A DNA stretch of 43,825 nt from positions 1 through 43,825 of the forward strand of contig JBMYNR010000012.1 of assembly GCA_049598495.1 (NCBI GenBank), in the 5' to 3' direction. Within the stretch, counting starts at the first letter, position 1; every line of letters starts with the position of its first letter. Shown one piece after another: positions 6,497-12,598 of this stretch. Source of the DNA: Opitutales bacterium. GTDB taxonomy: Bacteria > Verrucomicrobiota > Verrucomicrobiia > Opitutales > Coraliomargaritaceae. The notes under the pieces were generated by a model. That model saw nothing but the letters and a program-made list of their open reading frames with translations, made no database searches and was not told the DNA's origin. Both the position numbers and the translations under genes were made by a program.

Positions 6497-7966
6497 ATGA
6501 ATACCGCGATCATATACAGACTACTTAGCATGGTCTTGCTCGCACTCTCAGGAGCCTTTCTCCTTTGCATTGCGGTCGGCCTGATCATGGGCGAGACACT
6601 CAGCAGCCCCTCATTGAAGGCCTTTGAGATCACTATTGGGGTTGCGATCGGTTTGTCAGTGATCTTTCACCTGCTCGGCCGCAGGGGGAAGGCGAAGCTC
6701 TTCCGCCGGGAAGCGCTCTGCGCAATTGGCCTTTCCTGGATCTTAGCGACGCTGATCGGCGCGATTCCCTATATCCTAACGGTGCGTTGCGACTTATCCG
6801 ATGGTCTCTTTGAAAGTGCCTCCGGACTGACCACGACGGGGGCGACCGCCTTCAATAACTTCGCCGAGTTTCCTGCCAGCCTACTTTTCTGGCGATCGCT
6901 CAGCCAATGGGTCGGCGGCCTTGGGGTCGTCGTTTTTTTCGTCGCCATCCTTAGTTCATTGGGTGCGGGCGCAAAGATTCTCTTCAGTAATGAATCCTCC
7001 GGCACCTCAGCGGATTTTGACCAAGGGCGCATTCAAAAAGGTGCCCGGGATCTGATGCTCTTTTATCTGGGTATTTCCGGTGCCTGTGTCCTTGCTTACC
7101 GGATTGGAGGGATGGACTGGTTTCAAGCCATCAACCATGCCATGACGACCGTAGCCACCGGTGGTTTCAGCACCGAGGCCGATAGCATCGGGGCCTTCCA
7201 AAGCGCAACCATCGAATGGATCGCGATCATCTTCATGGCGCTGAGCGCGACAACCTTTGTTTACATGATTCGACTCATTCGCGGTCGCTTCCACACAGCG
7301 ACACAAAACCGTGAAATCTTTTGGTTCTATACCATGCTCGTCGCCAGCACCGGTTTGTTAACTCTCTACCTGGTGGAACTCACGGGTAAATTGCCAAACG
7401 CCGACAGTATCCGCACTGCGGCCTTCCAAGCCACCTCAATCATGACGACAACGGGATATTCGTCCGTCGATTTCGACGCCTGGTTGGCACCTGCCAAAAT
7501 GCTGCTCATCATCCTTATGTTCATCGGAGGTTGCTCGGGTTCCACGGCCGGTGGCGTCAAGGTCGTTCGAATCGTCATCGCCCTTCGCGCGGCAGCTCGA
7601 AGTGTCGCCCAGGCGTTTCGCCCCAATGTGACGATTCCGATGCGCATGGGCGGCCAGCATCTCAGTGAGAACGCCATTCATAATGTCATCCTTTTTCTTG
7701 TATTGATGGCAGCACTACAGATATTCTCGATGCTCTTCGTTTCTGCACTGGAACCGAGCATAAGTTTTCTCGGGGTTTTCTCATGCGTGCAAGCGACCCT
7801 CTTTAATATCGGACCCGGCTTTGAGGCTGTTGGGCCAACCGAGAATTTCCACTTTCTACGGCCAACGACAAAGGTGTTCCTTAGCCTACTGATGATCCTC
7901 GGCCGCCTCGAACTCTATGCCGTGATGGTGCTCTTCATCCCTACCGTGTGGCGACGCTTCTCTTGA
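6497..7966 (+). CDS. trkH: Trk potassium uptake membrane subunit TrkH
   Basis: Four pore-loop motifs [32 protein letters not shown]; also [12 protein letters not shown] and GRLEL. Confidence 0.95.
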
Positions 7967-7989
7967 GCGGCCGGAGACTGCTCAAGAGA

Positions 7990-8090
7990 AGCGGAGGACG
8001 GATAGCTGAGGACAAATGGCCGAAACAGAAGTCACAGAGCCATCATTCATCCGTCATTTTCATCCGCCATCACTCATCATTCATCATCCC
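7990..8090. repeat. ATGA/TCAT short-period repeat region, same family as 4532-4650
   Basis: CCATCATTCATCCGTCATTTTCATCCGCCATCACTCATCATTCATCATCC shares CATCCGTCAT, TCCGCCATCA and ATCATTCATCAT with 4599-4648. Confidence 0.7.
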
Positions 8091-8370
8091 CACGGCGTAG
8101 CCATGCAATCGTCGCGCCCCAAGCGCCCTCCCCCTGGCCTGCTAACTCGAAGTGTTCCACACACGGATTCTTGCGTAAGATTGCGTGCACCCTGTCTCGC
8201 AAGGTGCCGATACCCTTCCCGTGGATGATCCTTACCCGAAAGAAGCCCTTATCCTGAGCTAGCTCGATGTAGTCAGGCACGAGTTCACCGACCTCCGAAG
8301 GGCGAAAGGTATGCAGATCGAGCTCATCGGTGATCTCGAATTCGATTGGTTCTTCGGAACTCTCAGGCAT
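8077..8370 (-). CDS. Smr/MutS2 C-terminal domain protein
   Basis: ELDLHTF, VRIIHGKGIGTLR and GAWGAT motifs; 97 aa. Confidence 0.92.
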   Translation of the reverse strand: MPESSEEPIEFEITDELDLHTFRPSEVGELVPDYIELAQDKGFFRVRIIHGKGIGTLRDRVHAILRKNPCVEHFELAGQGEGAWGATIAWLRRGDDE

Positions 8371-9103
8371 ACGCGCTGCTCCATTTCCAATCGGCAGGCT
8401 TTCTACAGAAGCCCGCCTTTACAGGGTTCATGTGAATATAATCGACGACATCATCGAAATGTTTTTCGTTGCGTATGTAACGATCCCAATACTCTGGATG
8501 CCATAATGGAGATTTGGCTGTTGTCCCGGGATCGCGAATCTCCGTATTCGCTCTAAGCCATTTCTGGATCTCCGTCGCGGTAAACTTTTTCCAAGAAGCT
8601 ACAATCTTCGCCATCGACCAATCTGATAATGGTTGAAAGAGAACATGAAAGTGATTTGGCATGACACACCACGCTAGGAGTCGGTAACGTAGGCCATCAA
8701 AGTGCAGAAAGGCATTTTCCACGATTTCAGCGCAAGCAGTCTCACGCAGATGGCAGGCCCCGTGCCCAGCATCGATCCATTCATTGAGCCGTATTCGTCG
8801 CTCAACAGCCCGCTCCTCGTCGGGCATCGCTTCAATCCTCTCATCAATGCGTTTAATCACCGACTTTGGTAAGCTATCCGCTAAATGCACAGTGACATGC
8901 TGGATATGCGTTCCACTATCGAAATGCGGGATGTAGCCTCGCGAATTCCAGCCTCTGGAGCAGCTCGGGAGAGCTGCGGTCCCGGGATCGCGAATCTCCG
9001 TATTCGCTCTTACAGCTGACTCCGACGCAGAGCAGCTCGGGAGAGCTGCGGTCCCGGGATCGCGAATCTCCGTATTCGCTCTTACAGCGGGATCAAGCTT
9101 CAT
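8363..9103 (-). CDS. REP-associated tyrosine transposase (RAYT, HUH/Y1 superfamily)
   Basis: WNSRGYIPHFD, HLADSLP, WCVMPNHFHVL (HUH), SWKKFTA, YWDRYIRN, YIHMNPVKAG (catalytic Tyr), WKWSS; ATG 9103 is preceded by AAGGAGGAGG and overlaps the rmuC stop. Confidence 0.9.
   Translation of the reverse strand: MKLDPAVRANTEIRDPGTAALPSCSASESAVRANTEIRDPGTAALPSCSRGWNSRGYIPHFDSGTHIQHVTVHLADSLPKSVIKRIDERIEAMPDEERAVERRIRLNEWIDAGHGACHLRETACAEIVENAFLHFDGLRYRLLAWCVMPNHFHVLFQPLSDWSMAKIVASWKKFTATEIQKWLRANTEIRDPGTTAKSPLWHPEYWDRYIRNEKHFDDVVDYIHMNPVKAGFCRKPADWKWSSAYA
8523..8554. repeat. Single REP-like hairpin inside the RAYT coding sequence
   Basis: GTCCCGGGATCGCGAATCTCCGTATTCGCTCT is identical to part of the 8958-9016 and 9030-9088 units. 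Confidence 0.9.
8958..9088. repeat. Two identical 59-bp back-to-back REP doublets, 72-bp period
   Basis: GAGCAGCTCGGGAGAGCTGCGGTCCCGGGATCGCGAATCTCCGTATTCGCTCTTACAGC at 8958-9016 and 9030-9088; hairpins GCAGCT/AGCTGC and GCGAAT/ATTCGC. Confidence 0.92.
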
Positions 9104-10346
9104 CAACCTCCTCCTTCGGCAAGGTCGGTTGCTTTTCGATCGCGCCGGGCTCAACCACAGGCTCGGGCGCGGCGCTCTCCAGGGCTTCGAATTTCCGAGC
9201 CGTCACCAGCAGGCGGCTTTCAACCGAGCTGATCGCCCTGTTGTAATGCCCCACGCTCTGATCGAGACTTTTTCCCAGTTTGGAAAAATGCCCGGTCACC
9301 ACGCCGATCCGCTCGTAGAGCTCCTTGCCCAAGGCACTGATCTCCTTTGCTTCCCGAGCGATCGCCTCCTGCTGCCAACCATAGGCAATGGCCTTAAGCA
9401 AAGCGATCAAAGTGGTGGGCGTGGCAAGGATGACCTTGTTGTCCACGCCGAGCTCAATCAACTGCGGATCTTGCTCAAGCGCGGCGCTAAAGATGGTTTC
9501 ATTCGGAATAAAGAGGACGACGAACTCCGGCGCGTTATCGAACTGGGTCCAGTAGGACTTGGCGGAAAGCCCCTTGATGTGATCCCGGATATGCCGGGCA
9601 TGGGCCTTCATCCGTGTCGTCTGCACCTCCGGGTCCTCAGCCTCGAGGGCATCCAGATAGGCGGCCAAGGGGACCTTGGAGTCGACGACTACCTGCCGTC
9701 CGTTGGGCAGATTGATCATCATATCCGGACGCTGCCTCCCCTCATCGGTATCGACCGAGGCCTGCTCGAGGAAATCCACGCGGTTGATCATGCCGGCCAT
9801 TTCAACCGTGCGGCGGAGCTGCATCTCGCCCCACTGGCCGCGGACCTGCGGCGCCCGCAAGGCCTGCACAAGACTGCCCGTAGTTTTGCTCAACTGCGCC
9901 TGTGATTGGGCCAGTTGCTGAAGTTGCTTCTCGAGGCCCGCACTCGAAGCGACCCGCTCTTTCTCCACTTGTTCGAGCTTTGCATTGAAATGCTTCAATG
10001 CCTCACCAACGGGTTCGACCGTCTTGTTGATCGCCTGTTGGCGTTTCTCCAGATCTCCTCTAGCGCCCTCCTGATACTTTTCGAGGGTCGACTTGGCAAG
10101 GTTGATGAAGGACTCGTTATTCTTGGAGAGTGCCTCCGATGAGAGCGCCTGAAAGCTCTCTTTTAACTGCGCGCGTGCCTGCTCTAAAAGGACGAGCTTC
10201 TCCTCGGCCGCTTTCAACTCAGCATCCCGCTGCGCTTGTAAGGCAGCCAATTCCTGACGACTCGCACCCAAGGCCCGCCCAATGAAAAAATAAACCACGG
10301 ACGCACCTAAGATTGTCCCCGTTAACAAGCCTAATACAGTGTCCAT
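9093..10346 (-). CDS. rmuC: DNA recombination protein RmuC
   Basis: N-terminal TM and coiled coil; RGQWGEMQL, RPDMMINLP, VVDSKVPL, PEFVVLFIP and ATPTTLIALL motifs; start set at ATG 10346. Confidence 0.95.
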   Translation of the reverse strand: MDTVLGLLTGTILGASVVYFFIGRALGASRQELAALQAQRDAELKAAEEKLVLLEQARAQLKESFQALSSEALSKNNESFINLAKSTLEKYQEGARGDLEKRQQAINKTVEPVGEALKHFNAKLEQVEKERVASSAGLEKQLQQLAQSQAQLSKTTGSLVQALRAPQVRGQWGEMQLRRTVEMAGMINRVDFLEQASVDTDEGRQRPDMMINLPNGRQVVVDSKVPLAAYLDALEAEDPEVQTTRMKAHARHIRDHIKGLSAKSYWTQFDNAPEFVVLFIPNETIFSAALEQDPQLIELGVDNKVILATPTTLIALLKAIAYGWQQEAIAREAKEISALGKELYERIGVVTGHFSKLGKSLDQSVGHYNRAISSVESRLLVTARKFEALESAAPEPVVEPGAIEKQPTLPKEEVDEA

Positions 10347-10410
10347 CCACCCATTGAGCCATGTTTGCGCCTCCAATCAACGGTTATCGATCACCATCGG
10401 CATGAAATTA

Positions 10411-10433
10411 TTAATGAAATAAGCTTGCATTAA
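10411..10433. promoter_or_regulatory. Putative Fur/Zur-family operator upstream of the TonB-dependent receptor
   Basis: Imperfect palindrome TTAATGAAA-TAAGC-TTGCATTAA ending 33 nt before the ATG; a similar site lies at 13888-13905. Confidence 0.5.
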
Positions 10434-10465
10434 GACACCCGCCATTAAAATAAGTCGCTTTCATT

Positions 10466-12598
10466 ATGAAGACCTATCACCGACTCACTCTGCTCGCACT
10501 GATCTGCGGCACGCTCCCGCTAACCGCTGAGGAGATCTATAAATTGGATGACTATACCGTTTCCGCCGGCCCGCTGGCCCGCGCAATCGACGATTTCGCC
10601 AGCCCGTTCTCGTCACTGGATGACGAGGCAATCCGGCAGAGTAATGCCGGCACCCTTGGCGAACTACTGAACGGCCAACCGGGCGTGACCGCCTCCAGCT
10701 TTGGCGGCGGTGCCAGTCGCCCGATCATCCGCGGTTTTGATGGCCCCCGGGTCAGTATCCTTGACTCCGGACTCGGCGCCGCGGATGTCTCCGAGACCAG
10801 CCCGGACCACGCGGTCACGGTGGAGCCGCTCCTCACTGAGCGCGTAGAGGTGCTTCGCGGCCCCGCGACCCTTCTTTACGGCAGTTCCGCAATTGGCGGT
10901 GTCGTCAATGTGGTCGGCCGCGAACTTCCCAGAGAGCAGCCCACCCGCACGCTCTCGGGCGCTTTTGAAGCCCGGCATGACACCGTCTCCGACGGAGAAA
11001 CACTGCTCGGTTACACAACTTTCAACGAGGGTCCTTTGGTGGTAACCGTCCAGGGTTTGAAACGTCGGGCTGACGATTACGAGATTCCTTCGCACCCCGA
11101 AGCAGTTCCCGATGAACCACAGGAGGGCGATACCCTCGCCTCCAGCTTCGTAGAGACCGATTACTACTCGGCAGGTGCGAGCTGGTTCTTTAACGAGCGC
11201 AACTACATCGGCCTAGCCGTGTCCGGCTACGATTCCTTCTATGGCATACCGGGTCACGAGCATCATCACGAGGAGCACGGTGAAGGAGATGAAGGCGGCG
11301 AAGAGGATGAAGAAGAACACGGCGACGAAGAAGTCGCCGCAATCGATTTGGAGCGTAGCCGCTTCGATGCTGAACTGGCTGTATTTGAACCGACGCAGTG
11401 GATCGAAGCCATTCGCGTCCGCCTTGGCTACACCGATTACGAGCACGTAGAGGGTATGGCTGATCACGCAACCACTTTTGAGCGCGAAAGCTGGGAGCTG
11501 CGCGCCGAAGCCGCACACGATGACTGGGCCATCTTCACGGAAGGCATTTTTGGTGTTCAGTTGGTCGATGCCGATTTTCAGGCAATCGGCGAGGAGATCG
11601 AGGCAGAGGATGGAGGTTTGGCCTTCGGCCCCCCATCTACTACCCGCAGCCAAGCCTTCTTCTTCTCGGAGCACATTCACAGCGATGAAAGCGACCTACA
11701 CTTCGACTTCGGAGGCAGGATCGAGCGCCAGACCGTCGACGCGGATGGCAGCAGCAACTACAGTGATACCGCATTCAGTCTGGGCTTCAGCACCATCTGG
11801 AAAATCGACGAGGACAACTCGCTTGCGCTCTCGCTTCAACGGACGGAACGGCATCCGAACGCCACCGAACTCTACTCTGCAGGCCCTCACATCGCGACCA
11901 GCCAGTTTCAAGTTGGCGACGAGGACCTCGAAAAAGAAACCGCCTACGGCGTGGACCTCACCTATCGTTATCGTAGCGATGACTGGGAAGCCAGCGCCGC
12001 CGTTTTCTACACCTACTTCGAGGACTATATCTTCGATGAAAACCAAGGCTTCCAGATTGATGACGAAGGAAGAACCAGCAACGGGGGGCCTGGTGGCGCT
12101 CCTGAAGCCGATTTCGAGGCGGGCCATGCGCTCGATGTCTACAATTACGTTGCCGCCGACGCCCTCTTCTACGGCTTCGAAGCGGAGATCGACTACATCG
12201 CCTACCGCTCCGGCGACACCACTGTCCGCCTTGGCGTCCTCGCCGATTATGTCGTCGCCGAGAACCGCGATGACAAGGAGGACCTTCCGCGGATCCCACC
12301 GTTCCGCCTGGGTGGCAAGGCCGAGCTTGAATACGGCAATTGGAATGCAGGCGTCTTACTTCGCCGCAGCTTCGACCAGAAAGATACGGCGCCCGGCGAA
12401 ACGGACACAGACGGATTTACCGAACTGGAGGCAGATCTCAGCTACAGCTACGACTTGGGCAACGGTATGCTGCTAACCGCATTCGCGCGTGCGAATAATC
12501 TGCTCAACGAGGAGATTCGCCACCACAGTTCGTTCATCAAGAACGAGGCGCCCCGCCCGGGACGGAACTTCACCATCGGTGCGCGAGTCGAGTTCTAA
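10466..12598 (+). CDS. TonB-dependent receptor, ZnuD-like (probable zinc/metal uptake)
   Basis: Signal peptide; plug motifs GGGASRPIIRG, SPDHAV, VEVLRGPATLLYGSSAIGGVVN; His/acidic loop HEHHHEEHGEGDE; ends PGRNFTIGARVEF. Confidence 0.88.
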   Translation: MKTYHRLTLLALICGTLPLTAEEIYKLDDYTVSAGPLARAIDDFASPFSSLDDEAIRQSNAGTLGELLNGQPGVTASSFGGGASRPIIRGFDGPRVSILDSGLGAADVSETSPDHAVTVEPLLTERVEVLRGPATLLYGSSAIGGVVNVVGRELPREQPTRTLSGAFEARHDTVSDGETLLGYTTFNEGPLVVTVQGLKRRADDYEIPSHPEAVPDEPQEGDTLASSFVETDYYSAGASWFFNERNYIGLAVSGYDSFYGIPGHEHHHEEHGEGDEGGEEDEEEHGDEEVAAIDLERSRFDAELAVFEPTQWIEAIRVRLGYTDYEHVEGMADHATTFERESWELRAEAAHDDWAIFTEGIFGVQLVDADFQAIGEEIEAEDGGLAFGPPSTTRSQAFFFSEHIHSDESDLHFDFGGRIERQTVDADGSSNYSDTAFSLGFSTIWKIDEDNSLALSLQRTERHPNATELYSAGPHIATSQFQVGDEDLEKETAYGVDLTYRYRSDDWEASAAVFYTYFEDYIFDENQGFQIDDEGRTSNGGPGGAPEADFEAGHALDVYNYVAADALFYGFEAEIDYIAYRSGDTTVRLGVLADYVVAENRDDKEDLPRIPPFRLGGKAELEYGNWNAGVLLRRSFDQKDTAPGETDTDGFTELEADLSYSYDLGNGMLLTAFARANNLLNEEIRHHSSFIKNEAPRPGRNFTIGARVEF

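Follow-up and report, generated by a model that had tools for sequence, protein, structure and literature searches.

How did three copies of a perfect hairpin come to lie inside the reading frame of a transposase gene, and are they kept there as DNA, as peptide or by chance? The question is raised by a gene of the RAYT (TnpA-REP) family in an Opitutales bacterium (assembly GCA_049598495.1, 1.75 Mb in 73 contigs, 95% complete), where REP denotes the repetitive extragenic palindromes for which the family is named. The window, that is, the whole stretch of DNA analysed here, comprises all 43,825 nt of one contig (C12; JBMYNR010000012.1), and the gene lies on its minus strand between rmuC and an smr-domain gene (Table 1). 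The window contains exactly three copies of an 18-nt hairpin, hp1 (GCGAATCTCCGTATTCGC on the plus strand): those at 8534, 8990 and 9062 (shuffle expectation 0.01), each in frame within the RAYT open reading frame (ORF). A second hairpin, hp2 (GCAGCTCTCCCGAGCTGC), is found twice, at 8960 and 9032 (shuffle expectation 0.00). Together hp1, the GATCCCGGGACC spacer and hp2 form a 59-nt doublet that is present in two identical copies with a period of 72 nt; hp1 has a GGAG-type loop and hp2 a CTCC-type loop, and the two are inverted around CCCGGG. The third copy is a half unit: a repeat search delimits it at 8502-8560 with 68% likeness to the doublets, 32 bases at 8523-8554 are identical, and only hp1 is represented.

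Hairpins in the reading frame of a predicted nuclease

On translation, the doublets yield AVRANTEIRDPGTAALPSCS twice at the N-terminus, and the third copy yields RANTEIRDPGT between SWKKFTATEIQKWL and LWHPEYWDRYIR. Both the arrangement of three in-frame copies, two of them as doublets, and the internal copy within the RAYT protein are therefore as the original prediction, made from the letters of this DNA, had described them. The 32-mer shared by the three copies reached a depth of 195, versus 66-70 in the flanks, in contigs from one seawater run, and 97.5 versus 22-34 in those from a second, independent run. At about three times the neighbouring depth in two studies, the three-copy number is real and no artefact of assembly. 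Contigs of the Logan collection from three runs agree with the arrangement in the window and break at each repeat copy, and no joints or indels at the locus were seen in the contigs of four runs. Downstream of the RAYT gene, no hairpin was found in the window.

The gene encodes a domesticated HUH/Y1 nuclease of the RAYT/TnpA-REP family, predicted from its sequence and modelled fold to act on single-stranded DNA. Its product scores 96.5 bits against NCBIfam NF047646 (REP_Tyr_transpos; cut-off 80) and 34.4 against Pfam Y1_Tnp (2.6e-8; cut-off 23), and the sole solved relative found by sequence is Escherichia coli TnpA-REP (PDB 4ER8; HMMER E 3.5e-8). An AlphaFold 2 (AF2) model based on 77 homologues (predicted local distance difference test (pLDDT) 79, predicted template-modelling score (pTM) 0.72) retrieved the same structure as the top Foldseek match (4er8_A, E 4.7e-8, template-modelling (TM) score 0.65 on the target), followed by IS200/IS605 transposases. 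N226 aligns to N119 of 4ER8, in which the roles of H59/H61, Y115 and N119 have been described (PMC3479197), and P227 completes the Y---NP helix motif; H151, H153, Y222, N226 and P227 are unchanged across the 77-homologue alignment. With a profile score above the cut-off, an intact HUH motif and tyrosine, and 4ER8 as the nearest fold to the predicted one, the proposed RAYT identity stands. Compared with four orthologues, the proportion of non-synonymous differences (pN, 0.16-0.20) is far below the saturated synonymous proportion (pS, 0.77-0.83); the protein is under purifying selection.

The N-terminal array, too, must be translated, since no other canonical start precedes it in frame: between ATG 9103 and GTG 8890 there is no in-frame ATG, GTG or TTG, and GTG 8890 is already beyond the conserved first strand, WNSRGYIPHFD. 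A homologue with 90% identity, P0003, begins with the same MKLDPAVRAN. Together with the strong Shine-Dalgarno-like AAGGAGGAGG, these observations support the predicted start at ATG 9103 with the repeats read as protein. In the AF2 model the N-terminal repeats (residues 11-49) have pLDDT values below 50 and are predicted to be disordered. The hp1-encoded residues of the third copy, 185-195, lie between H153 and Y222 and belong to a coil (186-204) that connects helix 164-185 (αC) with strand 205-209 (β4); the β3:αC loop here has five residues. In the HMMER alignment 4ER8 has a gap opposite RANTEIRD, immediately behind the residue that pairs with H86. Helix αC of E. coli TnpA-REP enters the minor groove of the REP hairpin, with contacts that include K81, K82, Q83, T85, H86, K91 and R97 (PMC3479197), and the insert thus adjoins what is the hairpin-binding surface in the E. 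coli enzyme.

Comparison of sequences indicates that the loop hairpin is conserved as DNA and not only as peptide. Scored only at codons for the same amino acid, third-position identity to the four orthologues is 10/10, 10/10, 9/9 and 8/9 over the ten codons of the loop hairpin, versus 0.44-0.47 over the 132 codons of the core. In 29 distinct units of relatives, 99.5% of the stem cells pair, versus about 30% with slid partners, and changes on both sides are seen in 4 of the 13 stem pairs, a number that 0 of 500 shuffles reached. The conclusion also rests on other hairpins at the same sites in homologues. The wider family comprises 3235 proteins at E 0.001 or better, the top 120 of which were inspected for peptides, and the DNA of 80 loci was examined. 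In the top 120, peptides such as ANREIGVPG, GNANLPIG, ERQSPDWP, SQSGDWRS and ARQESGDPG are found ahead of the W.SRGY.PH strand and in that same loop. At the DNA level these peptides are perfect hairpins, such as GCCAAT-CTCCCG-ATTGGC, so that relatives across phyla carry other hairpins at the upstream and loop sites; those of distant homologues are read in both orientations (ANLPIG and ANREIG) and in a second frame (QSPDW and QSGDW).

A census of perfect hairpins covered the 38 loci that have all three motifs in one open frame. The 144 nt upstream hold 71, spread over 37 loci (shuffle mean 6.8), and the loop holds 19, in 11 loci (shuffle mean 1.7). For the core, taken to reach from W.SRGY to a point some 30 residues beyond the HUH motif, the count is 19 versus 16.9 expected. 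The 72 hairpins of the C-terminal segment (shuffle mean 19.0) can include downstream ones because this segment was read to the next stop. Often the loop hairpin is the same as the upstream hairpin of its locus or its exact inverse complement, the latter for instance at L030, L034, L037, L040 and L042. In 32 of 106 proteins, a 5-mer of the N-terminus recurs in the loop, versus a mean of 13.8 (maximum 24) when N-termini and loops are re-paired. As a separate observation, the frame at four loci from Chloroflexi, Tectomicrobia and Chlorobium (L043, L057, L067 and L074) runs from a long upstream protein, whose translation alone suggests a DNA methyltransferase, through hairpin-encoded linkers into the RAYT domain.

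Copy number and the rmuC-smr junction in relatives

Close orthologues carry the unit at both sites in differing copy number. The complete genome G007 retains the order rmuC-RAYT-smr; there, the rmuC stop is followed by five 72-nt units and these by a unique spacer, after which the RAYT gene has a start of its own, and the same loop holds 3.5 units. The upstream array of a gene with cognate hairpins, a trait of REPtrons, is present in both genomes, within the ORF here and extragenic in G007. The extragenic position in G007 identifies the N-terminal copies of the window as the array that usually flanks the gene upstream and that has here become part of the ORF. Elsewhere the loop counts are 0.5 units (the window and P0003), 2.5 (P0004) and 5.5 (P0002), and the upstream counts 2 (the window) and 1 (P0003); in the aligned core, P0002 and P0004 are 97% and 88% identical to the protein of the window. 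At both sites the number of units thus rises and falls in steps of 72 nt, and the variation in protein length that had been suggested as a consequence of the repeats is directly seen among orthologues. P0002, on a contig of 1.28 Mb, has about 90 residues missing between its N-terminal array and ENAFLHFDG and, as far as its sequence tells, is probably an inactive deletion variant.

Thirty smr loci of relatives were surveyed, and rmuC adjoins smr in 18 of them. A full RAYT gene is present at four of the 18 (the window, G002, G005 and G007), a RAYT match is absent at ten, and at the other four (G004, G011, G018 and G021, the last from another genus) one or more upstream hairpins are joined straight to the C-terminal third of the gene. 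All four of these remnants begin exactly at the loop array, the HUH-containing part being gone. Upstream and loop copy form a pair of direct repeats, separated by 456 nt in the window, and the recurrence of remnants joined at the loop copy points to recombination between the two. Three RAYT-less junctions were read: in G010 the site is empty and stop and start overlap, in G008 there is a plain spacer, and G016 has a solo hp2-type hairpin. By comparison of these loci, the unit entered a pre-existing rmuC-smr junction. At two loci, L128 (G023) and L144 (G024), 600-930 nt without a RAYT match separate rmuC from smr.

Outside the window, a search of the own genome at up to one mismatch gave no further hp1. 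Allowing two mismatches added a single extragenic doublet, located at about 34509-34570 of contig C8, with the same flanks and the same CCCGGG spacer; it is symmetric, as GATCCCGGGAAC has an hp1-type hairpin on either side in opposite orientation, and a terminator-like hairpin immediately precedes it. The claim that the copies are located inside the ORF rather than beside it is accordingly correct for the window but requires revision, as the N-terminal pair is an ordinary upstream array that has been absorbed, and an extragenic doublet does exist. In relatives, a DUF2339 membrane protein also carries the 72-nt doublet in frame in one of its linkers, with 5, 2 and 2 copies (L123:819-3866 in G007, L121 in G005 and L096 in G018), and NfeD-family proteins carry it in their C-terminal tail (L120 in G007 and L122 in G011). 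Every unit-bearing protein of the genus, whether RAYT, DUF2339 or NfeD, uses one reading frame (..AN.EIRDPGNATLPSCSASES..). The commonest hairpin of the distant homologues has 17, 20, 5, 5 and 1 sites in five other genomes, so that these lineages, too, are low-copy.

Origin of the intragenic copies

On the basis of these comparisons, we consider it likely that the locus is a REPtron, an HUH/Y1 nuclease gene with cognate REPIN-like doublets, which inserted between rmuC and smr and whose array was absorbed into the ORF. RAYT and hairpins would have arrived at the junction in the ancestor of this marine Opitutales group. The spacer and the native start, by which array and gene are kept apart in relatives, would then have disappeared from behind the upstream array, now of two units; owing to this loss, the ORF would begin at ATG 9103 and the array would be translated into a disordered N-terminal extension. 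One more half unit, with a single hairpin, would have come to lie in frame in the αC-β4 surface loop, past the HUH motif and ahead of the catalytic tyrosine. Copies may have entered by hairpin-directed strand transfer of the nuclease itself or by conversion from flanking copies, and only those in frame, free of stops and at structurally tolerant sites would persist. Slippage or unequal recombination may alter their number, recombination between direct repeats may have produced the truncated remnants, and the RAYT protein would stay functional. That hairpins spread into their cognate gene and survived only in frame had been proposed for this gene before. Such a spread, with survival at tolerant sites, is supported by the comparative data, namely variable copies at the same two sites, units outside genes, units in unrelated proteins and other hairpin families at the same sites.

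A number of observations weigh against this account. The own genome has five hairpins of the family in total, three of which are inside the RAYT ORF, and in a set of 41 genomes (the own and 40 relatives) hp1 at up to one mismatch is confined to seven, none of them from outside the own genus and none with more than 15 sites. Because the copy number is so low, we infer rather than observe that the RAYT enzyme mobilizes the hairpins. The GT[AG]G foot of canonical REPs was not found at these hairpins: GTAG is absent from the alignment of the 29 units, and the hairpins abut GA(T/G)CCCGGGA(A/C)C. The designation as a REP-type element is hence apt for two inverted hairpins with a spacer but not for foot or extragenic abundance, and a classical, abundant REP is contradicted by the genome-wide count, which yielded only one extragenic doublet beyond the RAYT gene. 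The folding energies of single units are not significant (z -1.26 and -0.85; z -2.92 for 150 nt). A stop-free design of the unit was considered and rejected, as four of the six frames are open but so they are in 29% of 20,000 shuffles. One metatranscriptome run contained 20% of the words and gave two short contigs at a depth of 3-5 that cover 8987-9249 only, by which transcription of the RAYT gene is neither shown nor excluded. Within the wider family, a perfect loop hairpin is absent from 27 of the 38 loci of the census, and 42 of the 80 loci had been dropped from it because the motif patterns used did not recover their gene in a single frame.

Alternatively, the intragenic hairpin might be selected as a working cis site at which the nuclease or another factor binds or cuts its own gene or messenger RNA (mRNA) and thereby limits expression, a model that we regard as unlikely. 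In variants of it, the Shine-Dalgarno region would be bound by CUCC-type loops, or deletion between the direct repeats would be a built-in means of switching the gene off. Such a site would account for a loop hairpin that is kept at synonymous positions in an otherwise saturated gene, for the recurrence of the upstream-family hairpin in the loop at 11 of 38 distant loci, often as an exact inverse complement, and for the four deletion remnants that start exactly at the loop copy. Identity at the DNA level could, however, equally stem from repeated conversion or re-insertion from sister copies. The range of 0.5 to 5.5 loop units among near-identical strains looks neutral, and the many distant loci that do without the perfect hairpin (27 of 38) do not speak for a required site. 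Moreover, a scan of 7900-10600 gave 0 promoter-like and 3 terminator-like sites (shuffle mean 2.5), none of them associated with the repeats.

A related model, to which we give slightly less credit still, holds that the loop hairpin is a functional part of the system, either as a self-acting site (feedback or programmed loss of the HUH part) or by encoding a peptide that would recognize its own hairpin. The position of the insert at the end of αC, the frozen synonymous sites and the match to the upstream hairpin across lineages suggest this reading, and if it were true, hairpin target and recognition loop would change together. It is highly improbable that selection maintains the peptide encoded by the repeats, be it as a flexible linker or as an interaction motif, with the hairpins as an incidental result of codon use. 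The single reading frame in all unit-bearing proteins of the genus would agree with a selected peptide, as would some distant homologues, for example L046 and L050, that keep the peptide without a perfect stem. Across the family, by contrast, the hairpin is read in both orientations and in another frame, and the unit also occurs outside genes (on C8, in G016 and, in G007, ahead of the RAYT start). Compensatory stem pairs, frozen synonymous positions and the predicted disorder of the segments likewise disagree with selection on the peptide. Least credible of all is a decaying pseudogene or an assembly artefact, as truncated remnants in relatives, the deletion in the otherwise 97% identical P0002 and contigs that break at each repeat are outweighed by an open frame of 246 codons with invariant catalytic residues, by pN far below pS, by the threefold 32-mer depth in two studies with contigs of three runs that match the arrangement, and by the shared architecture of P0003.

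Relation to known elements and other features of the locus

Returning to the REPtron reading, in-frame REP insertions inside tnpAREP genes have been reported by Quentin et al. 2018 (BMC Genomics 19:475, PMC6006769) for subclass 2.4, which corresponds to RAYT Group 4. The insert of this subclass varies through short DNA repeats and was modelled as a peripheral extension, and some members of subclass 2.8 also carry a REP insertion. The core idea is therefore already published, and the presence of REPs inside their own transposase gene is not new. As in subclass 2.4, whose insert was judged peripheral and tolerated, an in-frame insert within the gene is accompanied by flanking copies. The site differs, however, being the β3:αC loop in subclass 2.4 (Table 1 of PMC6006769) and αC:β4 here, and the REPs of subclass 2.4 have a GT[AG]G or double foot, which is lacking here. 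With respect to the signature given there for subclass 2.4 (NH[IFV]H / WQ / YIxNNP), NHFH fits, whereas WH and YIHMNP deviate. Five hairpin fragments, four from distant homologues and one from the RAYT gene, gave no match in the REP table of PMC6006769. A listed member of subclass 2.4, Aggregatibacter locus L280, retrieved with a 2.4-type REP, is 23% identical over 88 residues. Searching with a 2.6-type REP led to RAYTs of Flavobacteriaceae (Flavobacterium) with 25-31% identity and without the W.SRGY.PH start. An exact search with a 2.7-type REP gave no match, and its degenerate form retrieved mostly unrelated DNA together with one Bryobacter RAYT of 32% identity.

With E. coli TnpA-REP (PDB 4ER8; Messing et al. 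2012, PMC3479197) the protein shares the HUH/Y1 fold, aligned catalytic residues and a hairpin-associated gene. Unlike the hairpins described here, which are partly inside the ORF, the REPs of E. coli are extragenic, abundant and GTAG-footed, and in contrast to the E. coli enzyme the present RAYT has the conserved W.SRGY.PH start and, behind its first strand, about 45 additional residues that form a helical segment. The unit resembles a REPIN in that two inverted hairpins with a conserved spacer accompany a single-copy, vertically inherited RAYT; REPINs, however, are defined by high extragenic abundance, whereas one extragenic doublet is present here in 1.75 Mb. Bertels et al. 2017 (PMC5581495), in the sections available, analysed only flanking extragenic 16-mers. 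Intragenic in-frame REPs were described by Di Nocera et al. 2013 (PMC3733652), most of them in Opitutus terrae, and no transposase is among the intragenic targets listed in the accessible part of that paper. These REPs and the Rickettsia palindromic elements (PMC3733652) are often dimers and add 20-30 residues in frame to functional proteins, much as the unit does in the DUF2339 and NfeD proteins of relatives, but they are GTAG- or CGTC-tagged, unlike the hairpins here. Our literature search found nothing closer than subclass 2.4 of PMC6006769. The locus is a well-supported new example, in a marine bacterium, of a published habit with some variant traits, and four traits set it apart from the published cases, namely its insertion loop, its type of hairpin, the very low copy number and an obligatorily translated array.

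The case extends the little-noticed observation of REPs in their own transposase to Verrucomicrobiota, with a different loop and a different type of hairpin. Relative to the text of PMC6006769 as far as available, it adds conservation at synonymous sites, copy-number change among near-identical strains and repeated loss of the HUH part. A transposase ORF with three of the five hairpins of its family in a small genome is also a simple case in which to consider how REP-RAYT systems persist or become extinct. For annotation, where peptides such as ANREIGVPG, GNANLPIG and RANTEIRDPG stand at the ends and in one loop of proteins labelled 'transposase', they represent translated hairpins and not protein motifs.

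Table 1. Features of the RAYT locus, in coordinates of the window.
Feature	Position	Strand	Evidence or detail
RAYT/TnpA-REP gene, 246 residues	8363..9103	-	Pfam, NCBIfam and 4ER8 matches; pN versus pS
Hairpin doublet, copy 1	9030..9088	-	hp1 9062-9079, CCCGGG spacer, hp2 9032-9049; encodes AVRANTEIRDPGTAALPSCS
Hairpin doublet, copy 2	8958..9016	-	hp1 8990-9007, hp2 8960-8977; 72 nt from copy 1, 100% identical
Third copy, half unit	8523..8554	-	hp1 8534-8551 and GATCCCGGGAC; encodes RANTEIRDPGT; between HUH and Tyr
HUH motif codons, H151-F-H153	8645..8653	-	Aligned to 4ER8 H59-M-H61
Catalytic tyrosine codon, Y222, YIHMNP motif	8438..8440	-	Aligned to 4ER8 Y115
Shine-Dalgarno-like AAGGAGGAGG	9107..9116	-	Upstream of ATG 9101-9103
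rmuC	9093..10376	-	Upstream gene of the same operon-like run; Pfam RmuC 9.9e-102
smr-domain gene	8077..8370	-	Directly downstream of RAYT; Pfam Smr 4.1e-20

The RAYT gene overlaps both of its neighbours, at its start with the rmuC stop (11 nt) and at its stop with the smr start (8 nt). Where the smr gene and a membrane-protein ORF (489 residues, 6497-7966, plus strand) converge, a perfect 14-nt inverted repeat with an 11-nt gap lies between their ends, at 7955-7993, and is possibly a two-way terminator.

Other perfect hairpins with GGGAG/CTCCC-type loops occur at low copy in the own genome, one family with four copies and several with two (C2:34117, C3:30333, C46:9059 and 9089; C5:425 and 480; C20:26495 and 26540). 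The pair on C5 is directly downstream of another RAYT-like gene (C5:15-395). On contig C24, an ORF of 618 residues (L003:1372-3228, minus strand) fuses an AMP-binding enzyme to a Y1_Tnp domain, with Pfam matches to AMP-binding at residues 83-270, AMP-binding_C at 317-385 and Y1_Tnp at 451-531.

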